Sequence record: NZ_LC586267.2
Length of the DNA: 64,000 bases
Reading direction: 5' to 3' (one strand)
Source: a plasmid
Positions 56,001-64,000 of the stretch are shown piece after piece (position 1 is the stretch's first letter; each line of letters starts with the position of its first letter). Position numbers: made by a program.

Positions 56001-59000
56001 CTACCAGGATCAAAGCCTGCGCCGCGTGTACGAGCTGGACACCACGAACGATGAATTTCAGATGGTGCCGCTTAACCATGGGAAGTGGCCGCACCACCGC
56101 GCTCATTTGACATGCGGTTGGCGGTGCGACAGTCGACCTACCGGCTTTCTCGCACCGGCAGGGCTTGTGCCTGGTGCCAAAGGCGAGTTCGTGCCGGATG
56201 AAACAGAAGTTGTTTCCGTACGCATTCCGCCTGAATTCGAATGGGAAGGACGCCGGCATCAGATGAAACCTGCGGAACTGCTCGAAAGCTTTATTGGCGA
56301 CCTGGCCGGCATCCAGAACTTTGGCAACAGGCCCCGGGCTGACCGCTTCGGCAGCAACGGCAGCGACGAACGCATGCTGGCTGATCACTGGCTGGAGCGG
56401 GCGCATGGTATGAAAGCTATAGACCCGGACCAGATGAATCAGCAGGCCGAGGAAGCAGAGGAATGGGATGCACAGCAGGACGAATGGTCGGAGCTGCTGG
56501 GCGAATACGCTGATCGAGGCGGTGATCCTCGCCAGTTGCTGGAAGCCGTTGACGGTGTGCTGACCAAGCTGGACGAGTTGGGGCCTGATTTTGTGCTGGA
56601 TCTGCAGGCCGAGGTTGAAGCGACTCAAACCCTGCCCAAACTCACCGAGTTGAATCCCTCGCAGCTGGCGTACCTTGAGAAATGGTTGGCCAGCAACGGC
56701 CCGAACAACCTCCTAAAGTGGCCAGGTTGGCATGACGCCCGAGTTGGCCAGGCTCCGAAAGACGTTTGATTCTCCCTCTTGTGCGTGCCCCTTCGGGGGC
56801 GGCTGTCGTGAACCAAGCCCCGGCCAAAAGCACGCCGGGTCTTGGCCCTTCGAGCTTCCATCCTCACGCCTCCGGCCTTCGGCCTGCGCGCTCCGCTTGC
56901 CGTTTGTATCGTACGGCCGAGGGGGCAACTCCTTACCCGGCCTCACGGCCGGGATGGCCCATCCCACCTGGTAATCAAGATCGAGGGCGAGCCGGCCAGC
57001 AGGCCGGGCGCTGCAGCAGCTCGCGTGGGAGCAAGTGCATGGCTCGGAAATCGCCCTGCAGTTGCCCACCGCCCAGGCGATGATGCGCACCTGGTCCGTG
57101 GACAACTGCACCGTTCGCTCTGGCCCTTGTTGGGGCCCCGCTCACTGGACGATTTTTGTGTGTGGGCTGGGCGACTGCGCAAGAGCGGCCTTCGGCGACC
57201 AAGGGCTGCGCCCTTGGATCCGCAAGCCCAACGCGCCGGCCTCCGAATGGATGCCCTAACGCATATATGCGTTAGGGCTTGAACCGGCGATGTGCTACGC
57301 AGTCATCGAAGTCATCCCGGTAGCGGACCCGGATCTCTGTCATGGCCATGACCAGGGCTTGCACCATCGGCTCCAGAGTCGCCTCCAGCTGATCCAGGAT
57401 CTCAGGACCGACCTTTGATTTGTTGGCGGCTGTGCGCCCTTCCGTTGCGAATTTCTCCAGCGCAATCCGTACGTCCACCCCTCTCCCGAGCAGCTTGGTG
57501 CAGAGGTTTTCTGCCAGGGTCGGAGTTATGTCCAGCCCGTTCAGCCGTTCCACCTGCAGGAATGAAAACACCAGGTCGCGCTTGCAGCGCTTGTGCGCTG
57601 CACCGAGTTCCGCGCCGCAGTGGCTGGCCATCTGGCGCAAGCTGCCTTCCCGATTTTCCAGGTATCGGCGGTAACCATCGAGCCGGTCGGCGTACGCCGA
57701 TTTGGGGGGCATAGAGAAAACGGAAAAAATCGTACGATAAGCCCTGCTGACAGCCTGCAAGCCCTTAGGTTGTGTAGTCGGTGTCCGAATGGGGTATACC
57801 CTAACTTGGCGTCAGACCATCCGGCGCTAAATCGTCAGAATAGAGTTGCCTTCCGAATTGATTGACATACGCCGTCAAGGGTCATAGATTTCTTCCTGAC
57901 ACATTTCCCTCAGGAGGATACCTTGCACGGTCAGCGCATCGGTTACGTCCGCGTCAGCAGCTTCGACCAGAACCCAGAACGGCAGCTCGAACAGATCCAG
58001 GTGGATAAAGTGTTCACCGACAAGGCGTCGGGCAAGGACACACGGCGGCCCGAACTGGAACGGCTGCTCGCCTTCGTGCGCGAAGGCGACACGGTCGTGG
58101 TGCACAGCATGGATCGTCTGGCGCGCAACCTCGACGACCTGCGCCGCCTGGTGCAGGGCCTCACCCAGCGCGGCGTACGCATCGAGTTCCTTAAGGAGCA
58201 TTTGACCTTCACCGGCGAGGACTCGCCGATGGCGAACCTGATGCTGTCGGTAATGGGCGCGTTCGCCGAGTTCGAACGCGCCTTGATCCGCGAGCGGCAG
58301 CGCGAGGGCATCGCGCTCGCCAAGCAGCGCGGGGCCTACCGTGGCAGGAAGAAATCCCTGTCGTCTGAGCGTATTGCCGAACTGCGCCAACGTGTCGAGG
58401 CTGGCGAGCAAAAGACCAAGCTGGCTCGTGAATTCGGAATCAGTCGCGAAACCCTGTATCAATGCTCGAGAACGGATCAGTAAATATGCCACGTCGTTCA
58501 ATCCTGTCCGCCGCCGAGCGCGAAAGCCTGCTGGCGTTGCCGGACACCAAGGATGAGTTGATCCGTCACTACACGTTCAGCGAAACCGACCTCTCCATCA
58601 TCCGGCAGCGGCGCGGCCCGGCCAACCGGCTGGGCTTCGCCGTGCAGCTCTGTTACCTGCGCTTTCCTGGTGTCATCCTGGGCGTCGATGAGCCGCCGTT
58701 TCCGCCCTTGTTGAAACTGGTCGCCGACCAGCTCAAGGTCAGCGTCGAAAGCTGGGACGAATACGGGCAGCGGGAGCAGACCCGGCGCGAGCACCTGGTC
58801 GAACTGCAAACGGTGTTCGGCTTCCAGCCCTTTACCATGGGCCACTACCGGCAGGCCGTCCAGTTGCTGACCGAGATGGCCTTGCAGACCGACAAGGGCA
58901 TCGTGCTGGCCAGCACCTTGATCGAGCACCTGCGGCAGCAGATCGGTCATTCTGCCTGCCCTCAACGCCGTCGAGCGGGCGAGCGCCGAAGCAATCACCC

Positions 59001-62000: not shown

Positions 62001-64000
62001 TTTTCCACTCCGGGCGTCATTGAGCCTAGTTTAGGGTTTCCGGCGATTTCCGTTGCGCCAGGTCAGTTTCTGCTTAAAGACTTAGGGTTGCTTGCTGTTT
62101 CGATATTTGTGGCAGGCCATTCGCTGGTTGAACTGGAAAAACGTAAAATTAATGCATAATTTTTCAATGGCTTAAGGCAGTAATGCCTTAGGCCTTTTTG
62201 CCATCATTTTCCCCCGCCAGATCTTTCAACCAGTCACGAGGGCTCAACCCCGTCTTGCGTCTAAATGCGCGAGACAGCGCCGAAGGACTTTCGTAGCCGA
62301 CTTGAGCTGCAATCAGCGTAATCGAGCGCCCTTCTCGCATCAGCTTCTGAGCCAGGCTAACTCGCCAACTCAACAAATAATCAGCAGGCGTCTGTCCGAT
62401 GACACTCTTGAAATGCACGGCATACGCAGCGCGTGACATATTTGACTCACTGGCCAGCTCTGCTATTGACCAGGCATGTTCCGGGGAGTTGTGCATCTGT
62501 AAAAGCGATCGGGCAAGCCGCATGTCGGCCAGTCCAGCCATCATTCCGGTGCGCAACTGGTGATGATCGAGCAGGTAACGGAGCAACAGAATGATTAGGA
62601 GCTCAAATAAGCGCTCAAGCGCGGCTTCCCTTCCACAATGCACATTTGCCGCCTCGGCAAACATCCACTCCAACGTGTCTGCCAGCATGGGCAGATCATC
62701 GAGTGCGAGCACCAAACAGTCCGGTAATGAAGCCGACAAAGGATTATCAATTCCGCCCTCAAACTCCATGGAAGCACACAACAACTTTGCGCCATCGGAC
62801 TCACCCGCAAACAATTGATGCTTGGCGGGGCGTGGCATAAAAATCAAGCTAGGGCGAGTGAGCTGCAAATCCTTGCGATCGGGACCAAGCAACGTCACGC
62901 TGCCGGCCTGAAGCAGATGGATATAACCTCGCCGCTCGGCGCCATCGTAAGATGCAGAGCCGCATAGGTCGCCGTCATAGAACAGATTGGCCCGCACGCC
63001 GAACCGCGAGAGCAAATTAGACAAACGATCCATTGGCCGATCCTTGACGAGTCAGAACGCACAGACCATACCATTGTTGCCGCTGACCGAAAACTGACCC
63101 AGTAGAGGCTGTTCTGCCGACTGAAAACTGACCCAGGTGTTCAACTGCTTCTGCTCAATTTTTGAGCAGGAGAACACAGGGTGATCAGTATGGAAATGAT
63201 GGGCAAAATTCGCCGGATGTATTTCCGCGACAAGCTGTCGCTGCATGAGATAGCCAAGCGCACCGGGTTGGCGCGCAACACGATTCGCAAGTGGGTCAGA
63301 GCACCTGAGGCCAAGCCGCCGGTCTACCAACGCCGCGCGATCTTCAACAAACTCAGCCCTTTTCACGCAACGCTGGAGCAGGCGCTAAAAGCCGATTCGC
63401 TGCGGCCCAAGCAACAGCGGCGCAGTGCCAAGGCGCTGTTGGCGCAAATCAAAGCCGAAGGTTATGACGGTGGCTACAGCCAGCTCACCGCGTTTATCCG
63501 TGCCTGGCGAGGGGGACAGGGCAAGGCGTCGCAGGCCTTTGTGCCGCTGACCTTTGCTCTTGGCGAGGCGTTTCAGTTTGACTGGAGCGAGGAAGGCTTG
63601 CTGGTCGGCGGCATTTACCGGCGTATGCAGGTGGCACATCTGAAGCTGTGTGCCAGCCGTGCGTTCTGGCTTGTGGCGTATCCGAGCCAGGGCCATGAGA
63701 TGTTATTTGACGCCCATACACGCTCGTTCGGCTCCTTGGGCGGCGTGCCGCGCCGGGGCATCTACGACAACATGAAGACCGCCGTCGACAAGGTCAATAA
63801 GGGCAAAGGCCGGGCGGTGAATGCGCGCTTTGCGGTGATGTGCGCGCATTACCTGTTCGATCCGGACTTCTGCAACGTCGCCGCTGGTTGGGAAAAGGGC
63901 ATCGTTGAAAAGAACGTGCAAGACAGCCGCAGGCGTATCTGGCTAGACGCCCAGGACTGCCAGTTTCACTCCTTCGAGGAACTCAATGCCTGGCTGGGCC

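Follow-up and report, generated by a model that had tools for sequence, protein, structure and literature searches.

Where does the resistance region of a Pseudomonas plasmid begin and end, and did it arrive in one piece? The question is raised by a 64,000-nucleotide stretch of plasmid record NZ_LC586267.2 (the window), in which a class 1 integron with blaVIM, a mercury resistance (mer) module and a tnpR-tnpA pair of the Tn3 family lie toward the two window ends, with a conjugative backbone between them. We find that these modules very probably belong to a single ~18.7-kb Tn3-family (Tn21 subgroup) composite transposon in an IncP-9 (Rsu2-type) conjugative Pseudomonas plasmid, which would have inserted in an ancestor of this plasmid and been remodelled afterwards.

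Termini, target site and extent of the element

The 38-mer GGGGGGCATAGAGAAAACGGAAAAAATCGTACGATAAG (inverted repeat A, IR_A) occurs exactly twice in the window, in inverted orientation and with 38 of 38 positions identical, and it appeared in none of 100 shuffles of the window. Identity between the two arms is unbroken over 103 bp (57704-57806 versus 11606-11708) and amounts to ~84% out to 202 bp. The GGGG outer ends of both copies point to the segment 11709-57703, and the pentamer GATTT stands directly outside each of them (Table 1). The first-pass annotation had described identical inverted repeats with identity to about 100 bp, facing the backbone and flanked by GATTT, and this description proved accurate. 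The chance of a lone 5-bp flank match is ~1/1024. An alignment of the flanks with related backbones had been proposed beforehand as the check on the insertion, and for this purpose both outer flanks were joined with a single GATTT and the resulting empty-site query was searched for in plasmids. The joined sequence was recovered in one piece in 12 plasmid records. The two 40-bp flanks of the query are contiguous in P. amygdali p1 (NZ_CP084213.1; 40/40 on the left, 39/40 on the right) with exactly one GATTT between them, indicating that the window holds a true 5-bp target duplication. One GATCT occupies the equivalent empty site in pYK0414-06 and pAER57. A reading of pAER57 as having a small tnpRA transposon inserted here proved wrong: the site is empty and a TnAs3-type element adjoins it. 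Empty-site plasmids have the site 51-55 bp inside an intact open reading frame (ORF) of 160-164 amino acids (aa) adjoining sprT, and the 160-aa window copy of this ORF is interrupted after codon 17 by the insertion. No Pfam family matched the split ORF. A palindrome, GCCCTAACGCATATA(T/C)GCGTTAGGGC, lies at 11790-11819 and 57250-57279, just upstream and just downstream of it.

A second pair of 38-bp repeats, of the Tn21 type (IR_B), is located inside these ends at 7983-8020 and 61449-61486. Given that each resulting sub-unit is bounded by a Tn3-family repeat pair, the locus could be read as two independent small transposons, 57704-61486 (IR_A...IR_B) and 7983-11708 (IR_B...IR_A), with the GATTT match being a coincidence or a hot spot. 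However, neither sub-unit has a duplication of its own (inner flanks CTTCA and AAGAA), the CTTCA context of IR_B is constant in every copy seen, and empty-site plasmids have both outer flanks joined across a single GATTT, which makes two separate insertions very unlikely. With its unlike flanks, the IR_B pair brackets the backbone 'inside-out' and defines no element here.

Window positions 11597-37002 and 37003-61789 align in order, at 99.7-99.9% identity, to 40114-65474 and 1-24795 of CP081967.1, the closed plasmid of P. mosselii DSM 17497; segment 11597-61789 is thus collinear through the origin of that plasmid. The 45,995 bp between the two IR_A copies are collinear with the whole backbone of this closed IncP-9-type plasmid, indicating that the complete backbone lies between the repeats. 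Both window ends fall inside one copy of ISPst3, an insertion sequence (IS) of the IS21 family, and exactly 681 bp of istA are missing between positions 64000 and 1 when compared with CP080283 and pVIM_Pse-KSS14 (KSS14). From the complete backbone and this gap, the element comprises 18,005 bp in the window plus 681 bp, giving 18,686 bp in a plasmid circle of ~64.7 kb. Taken together, the empty site, the collinear backbone and the ISPst3 gap bear out the earlier proposal of one transposition event, in which an element running from 57704 to 64000 and on from 1 to 11708 entered a circular plasmid, and its size, previously put at 'at least 18.6 kb', agrees with the computed length. The 1-bp indels of the window, typical of long-read errors, might point to an assembly artefact in the form of a mis-join across repeated IRs or IS copies. 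However, seven plasmids sequenced independently have the left and/or right junctions, and pJUPA4295, KSS14 and pPP-DIM-1 share the order of the interior, so that such an artefact is scarcely credible.

The element carries the characters of the Tn3 family, Tn21 subgroup. Both the IR_A and the IR_B pairs are terminal repeats of ~38 bp of the form GGGG...TAAG; the target duplication is 5 bp long (GATTT here; AATAT, AGATT and TGAAA elsewhere); and a serine resolvase gene with an upstream res site is co-directional with tnpA in the order res-tnpR-tnpA. Of the large DDE transposase (~990 aa), both domains are encoded, although in two frames here; near-identical copies elsewhere are intact. The repeats had been called Tn501-type. 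IR_A matches a 38-mer that we take to be the Tn501/Tn1721 repeat at 29 of 38 positions, including 20 of 21 in the inner part. This 38-mer is a real and widespread sequence, and the one plasmid match of it that was looked up has no annotated gene adjoining. The label is fair in that the inner 21 bp are one base off the presumed Tn501/Tn1721 repeat.

The res-bearing arms and the interior

We propose that both termini represent the same module, in which a 55-bp spacer separates IR_A from a res site. On the left, this module would be fused at res to a working-type tnpR-tnpA-IR_B unit, and on the right there would be the remains of a second such end, the res site of which was struck by a Tn5053-type res-site hunter. 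Judged by their sequence, both arms are res sites because of the adjoining tnpR, the identity to Tn21/TnAs1 res, the breakpoints within GGTATACC and the abutting IR of a res hunter. Immediately upstream of tnpR, thousands of Tn21/TnAs1-type transposons have a region with 87-90% identity to the right-arm res, and a near-identical counterpart of this res precedes intact tnpR-tnpA in P. mucoides. At the right end of the window element, the right-arm res region, differing from that at the end of the relatives, is fused directly to a 25-bp Tn5053/Tn402-type IR (IR25). The breakpoints were found in pJUPA4295 (NZ_LC586269.1), which has an unrelated backbone and carries a ~19.4-kb interior, without IR_A ends, inside the GGTATACC core upstream of the plasmid's resolvase gene. 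Both junctions fall within GGTATACC (~12465-12480 and ~4526-4545 of the two examined stretches) with nothing lost or duplicated, and the uninterrupted site is present in at least 26 related plasmids, e.g. NZ_CP027175.1. At one junction the two accessory-site-proximal halves meet in mirror image, which is not expected from canonical resolvase topology. A third GGTATACC core (ATGGGTATACCCC) lies at 35796-35803, with the recombinase gene of the backbone itself following ~125 bp downstream, so that three res-like sites with one core exist on the plasmid.

In this scheme, a Tn3-type transposase would act on the two outer IR_A copies with a 5-bp stagger, producing the GATTT duplication and, in a plasmid ancestral to this lineage, disrupting the 160-aa backbone ORF. 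Transposition would proceed via a cointegrate resolved by TnpR at res, and TnpR might also recombine the two inverted res sites with each other, inverting the interior or swapping modules. The res sites would attract Tn402/Tn5053 elements (the class 1 integron and the mer/tni element), and ISPst3, deletions and cassette exchange would have added to the later remodelling of the interior. It is possible, if rather doubtful, that the 93 bp made up of IR_A, the spacer and the outer half of res site I serve as a portable end that is passed between Tn21-subgroup modules by resolvase crossovers, rendering any DNA between two ends transposable, and that, separately, the interior can reach the res of another plasmid without a transposase. 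A Tn501-like mer transposon, rebuilt from 7983-11615 and 57797-61486 joined at res, was rejected: because the right-arm res runs I-II-III away from IR_A, the join yields a mirror-image double res. The same reconstruction is also ruled out by the mer genes being of Tn5053 type (merF, 25-bp IR) and not native to the right-arm res.

Table 1. Features of the composite element and its junctions in the window, listed from the left flank through the window end to the right flank
Feature	Position	Strand	Details
3' part of split 160-aa backbone ORF	57272-57703	-	first 17 codons at 11764-11714
Left target duplication, GATTT	57699-57703		directly outside left IR_A
Left terminal 38-bp IR_A	57704-57741	+	outer end 57704
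Left arm: 55-bp spacer and predicted res site	57742-57922	+	core GGTATACC at 57793-57800; two more conserved blocks; tnpR directly downstream
tnpR, serine resolvase, 186 aa	57923-58483	+	Pfam Resolvase and HTH_7; WP_003124096.1 in relatives
tnpA, Tn3-family transposase, frame split	58486-61453	+	DUF4158 in first frame, DDE_Tnp_Tn3 in second
Inner Tn21-type 38-bp IR_B, tnpA end	61449-61486	-	outer end 61486; flank CTTCA
DUF417/RclC-like membrane protein	61641-62159	+	
AraC/RclR-like regulator	62188-63033	-	
ISPst3 (IS21 family), left part	63075-64000	+	istA from 63190, off window end; boundary is start of homology to KSS14
ISPst3, right part	1-890	+	istB 1-804 (IstB family); right end ~890
Integron 3'-conserved segment (3'-CS)	976-3072	-	small ORF 976-1203, orf5 GNAT 1264-1764, sul1 1892-2731, qacEdelta1 2725-3072
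Gene cassettes	3241-5554	-	aac(6')-31-like 3241-3795, aadA1 3875-4666, blaVIM 4754-5554 (NCBIfam)
attI1 / AAC_AAD_leader	5563-5631	-	
intI1	5721-6734	+	
Exact Tn402 IRi, 25 bp	6912-6936		outer end 6936
Fragment of another replicon	6941-7979	+	small ORF 6941-7171, serine recombinase 7323-7979
Inner Tn21-type 38-bp IR_B, merR end	7983-8020	+	outer end 7983; flank AAGAA
mer module	8037-11084		merR 8037-8471 (-); merT 8543-8893, merP 8909-9184, merF 9187-9429, merA 9429-11084 (+)
tniA-end remnant (162 bp) and Tn5053/Tn402-type 25-bp IR	11310-11496	-	IR 11472-11496, 23/25, outer end 11496
Right arm: predicted res site and 55-bp spacer	11497-11670	-	core GGTATACC at 11612-11619; inverted relative to left arm
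Right terminal 38-bp IR_A	11671-11708	-	outer end 11708
Right target duplication, GATTT	11709-11713		directly outside right IR_A

The tnpA gene contains a 1-bp insertion (an extra A at 58942) relative to intact copies of the 988-aa WP_001138070.1. With tnpA frameshifted in the sequence as given, any further movement of the present copy would depend on transposase provided in trans. A sequencing error may underlie the frameshift, given the homopolymer indels seen elsewhere in the window relative to near-identical relatives. Compared with two otherwise identical relatives, 1-bp indels are found in G/T runs at 57027, 57047, 58942 and 62144, and four substitutions and one insertion are clustered in tnpR/tnpA (58464-59320); this pattern suggests long-read-type errors or locally low quality. 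Neither this frameshift nor the IR_B pair nor the res sites in both arms had been recorded in the first-pass annotation.

As a class 1 integron, the interior includes intI1, attI1, three cassettes, the 3'-CS and an exact IRi, with IRt and tni absent. The missing IRt and tni, together with the ISPst3 abutting the 3'-CS, mark it as a defective Tn402 derivative, and its IRi sits just upstream of the serine recombinase gene. ISPst3 joins the upstream region of the AraC gene to the 3'-CS. Its edges (63070-63074 and 891-912) were read and show no flanking target duplication, indicating that it marks a junction and does not represent a simple insertion; in KSS14 this IS adjoins the backbone, which indicates IS-mediated deletions. 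The DUF417 and AraC pair following IR_B is also present in pPP-DIM-1, pJUPA4295 and CP080283. As for the Tn5053 family, one 25-bp IR (23/25) abuts the right-arm res, next to a tniA remnant and merRTPFA, with the second 25-bp IR and the tni genes missing here and present in KSS14 and Rsu2. The mer module lacks merD and merE, and KSS14 keeps merD, merE and tniRQBA at that place. The tniA'-IR25 stretch recurs at 100% identity beside an intact tniA in Rsu2 and KSS14 as well as in the P. mosselii plasmid and pPP-DIM-1.

Movement of the ends and history of the cargo

IR_A is rare and was detected only in Pseudomonas, in 24 plasmids (PLSDB) and six genome stretches (one genome per species), and the complete IR_A...IR_A pairs readable outside the insertion site of the window all have matching 5-bp flanks. 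Thus, pPP-DIM-1 carries a 27.7-kb IR_A...IR_A composite with most of the window modules in an unrelated backbone (AATAT/AATAT), and P. mucoides P154a carries a 23.9-kb element (NZ_JACOPW010000010.1, 192,575-216,489; AGATT/AGATT). A 759-bp miniature in pHNGDW697-2, consisting of IR_A, res, a 79-aa ORF and a second IR with two mismatches, is flanked by TGAAA/TGAAA, and a 759-bp element with the two-mismatch IR pair in P. lundensis is an exception, its flanks not matching. The pPP-DIM-1 composite holds, between its IR_A ends, tnpRA, DUF417/AraC, the ISPst3-3'CS junction, intI1-IRi-recombinase and tniA'-IR25. The P154a element has a tnpR-bearing arm at each end (575-4402 of stretch L024; 452-489 of stretch L022), and in one of these arms the right-arm res type of the window lies upstream of intact tnpR-tnpA. 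No autonomous transposon with IR_A at both ends was found (PLSDB; one genome per species), the closest being an IR_A-res-tnpR-tnpA-IR unit in P. mucoides, the other IR of which differs at 8 of 38 positions. The 759-bp miniature, whose 79-aa ORF is WP_081791613.1, occurs in pHNGDW697-2 (15113-15871 of stretch L010), in the Rsu2 record (40058-40816) and in stretch L023 (3779-4537); a 245-bp form occurs in the pCCBH28525_KPC record at 20707-20951 and 34820-35064. No published name was found for the 759-bp or the 245-bp Pseudomonas miniature elements, nor, in the literature searched, for the window composite.

At the GATTT site itself, the left junction of the window is shared with CP081967, CP087162, LC685593 (Rsu2), CP046873 and CP086065, and the right junction with those five as well as CP080283 and MN961673, at least seven plasmids with near-identical backbones. 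The interiors are different: the P. mosselii plasmid has mer and another Tn3-family element with no integron, CIP-10 has tet(A) and a different integron, pCCBH28525 has KPC-2 between two 245-bp miniature elements, and Rsu2 has IS26, aphA1, Tn3, strAB and tni. The same GATTT junctions around different interiors indicate that the insertion would date back to an ancestor of these plasmids and that part of what the window now carries would stem from remodelling after it; the simplest history would be a single such insertion with subsequent rearrangement in situ. An intact 759-bp miniature with inner flank TAGTA forms the right end in Rsu2, the P. mosselii plasmid and KSS14, and tniA-IR25 and a further 1.66 kb come before it. 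The opposite flank, that of sprT, adjoins the tnpR arm in CP080283, indicating that the interior has been inverted there.

The first-pass annotation had the integron, the mer module, tnpRA and the AraC/DUF417 pair all arriving together, and we therefore weighed whether the present 18.7-kb element, with all four modules, came as it now is in the single GATTT event. The pPP-DIM-1 composite, having such content between its IR_A ends at another site with a duplication of its own, indicates that a composite of this kind can transpose as a unit, and both the ISPst3/3'-CS junction and that of intI1 recur in Rsu2, with order and orientation conserved. However, cargo at the same site varies as listed above (no integron in the P. 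mosselii plasmid; tet(A) and another integron in CIP-10; KPC-2 in pCCBH28525), the right end is the 759-bp element in Rsu2, the P. mosselii plasmid and KSS14 as against the res-IR25 fusion of the window, and the window lacks merD, merE and tniRQB, all of which are kept in KSS14. Arrival of the whole present content at once is accordingly improbable; what stands of the claim is that such a composite moves as a unit, and what does not is the simultaneous arrival of everything now aboard. Rsu2 and pPP-DIM-1 suggest that tnpRA, the ISPst3-3'CS-integron part and tni parts were aboard at the GATTT insertion. By contrast, the cassettes of the window would have been acquired after the insertion, which the deletion in mer/tni and the exchange of the right-arm res would likewise postdate.

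The complete miniature at the right end in relatives raises a further possibility, that a 759-bp miniature inserted first, giving the GATTT duplication, and a Tn21-like circle was then integrated at its res by resolvase. This order of events would account for the 'inside-out' IR_B pair around the backbone, and pJUPA4295 shows that res-core crossovers relocate interior DNA. It predicts a two-mismatch IR at the right boundary and direct res repeats, but IR_A at both ends and inverted res sites were seen, and the complete miniature in Rsu2 and the P. mosselii plasmid has TAGTA rather than GATTT as its inner flank. The orientation of the right end contradicts integration of a circle through res, and this history is highly improbable.

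Several points weigh against an ancestral insertion of one composite followed by remodelling. The tnpA aboard is broken by one extra base, which may be an error as discussed above. The resident TnpA unit ends in the Tn21-type IR_B, which matches IR_A at only 25 of 38 positions. The pPP-DIM-1 element is a large composite with most of the modules, movable as one piece, which limits the dating of the cargo, and the order of the in-place events is drawn from a handful of relatives.

Known composite systems and the plasmid backbone

The window element is an ordinary composite of a type already known, TIME-COMP-like or Tn1721-like. In the Tn1721/Tn1722 architecture, a unit Tn21-subgroup transposon is extended by a third IR copy. 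The window has, similarly, a complete IR-res-tnpR-tnpA-IR unit (57704-61486) and a far inverted IR, as in the long form that moves the DNA between. By contrast, its distant IR matches the res-proximal and not the tnpA-proximal IR, and brings its own res, resulting in two inverted res sites. TIME-COMP elements (PMC4133298; Gomi & Yano 2026, PMC13367494) share with the window outer 38-bp Tn3-family IRs, 5-bp duplications and resistance cargo, inverse ends each with a Tn21-type res, and an interior found in both orientations at one site, and the sister plasmids have true miniature ends (759 bp in Rsu2; two of 245 bp in pCCBH28525_KPC). A TIME-COMP, however, has a complete two-IR miniature at both ends and no transposase gene of its own. 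Because each window arm has a single IR_A, neither being a complete miniature, and the (frameshifted) tnpA is aboard, the element is not a strict TIME-COMP; the IR of TIME244 also differs in sequence from IR_A.

The res-hunter carriers Tn6603, Tn1013, Tn21 and Tn1696 (Rajabal et al. 2020, PMC7765201) resemble the window in having a 25-bp IR a few bases past the last res block, at the point where tnpR would start, and the IRi of the window likewise lies upstream of another recombinase gene. In contrast to these carriers, both window hunters are defective: the integron lacks IRt and tni, and the mer element lacks merD, merE and tniRQB and has a Tn21-type IR instead of a 25-bp IR at its merR end. 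Knowledge of how such elements work is unchanged by this result. It does show precisely where the region with blaVIM and with aminoglycoside, sulfonamide and mercury resistance begins and ends in an IncP-9 Pseudomonas plasmid, how long it is and where it inserted. Since the same ends have moved at least three other times, judging from the flanks compared, the carbapenemase integron could spread by transposition besides conjugation. Pseudomonas also possesses miniature Tn3-family ends of its own that carry res, comparable to the TIME244 elements recently reported from Enterobacteriaceae, and such ends are easily overlooked in annotation.

The backbone is 99.7-99.9% identical to the Rsu2 type, 91-96% to pAER57 and the pYK plasmids and ~77-85% to pWW0, with ~85% identity to pWW0 near sprT. 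Rsu2 is the IncP-9 archetype (bioRxiv 10.1101/2024.09.03.610885), and the window backbone resembles the IncP-9 / pMOS94-like MOBF/MPF_T Pseudomonas plasmids. In the pMOS94 lineage, Tn402-like elements are reported to lie upstream of the backbone invertase gene (PMC6614342) and not at the GATTT site. The sole backbone difference from the P. mosselii plasmid is an exact 62-bp tandem duplication at 14518-14641, in the stb/tra intergenic region, of which that plasmid has a single copy. An exact 300-bp direct repeat occupies 43879-44178 and 52263-52562, 8.4 kb apart in the backbone, with a third, partial copy (96%) at 56795-56907. A unit of ~145 nt, which matched no Rfam family, is present in five copies (45879-46025, 46814-46957, 49097-49244, 52769-52918 and 53938-54086) and in partial copies at 47672-47705, 47955-47988 and 51261-51288. 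These units stop just before the start codons of leading/maintenance-region genes (DUF4942, DUF932 and others), and their layout comprises the palindrome GGTCAAATTAGATTTGACC, TTGAC-17 nt-GATACT, a conserved 75-nt leader with two hairpins, AAGGAG and ATG.

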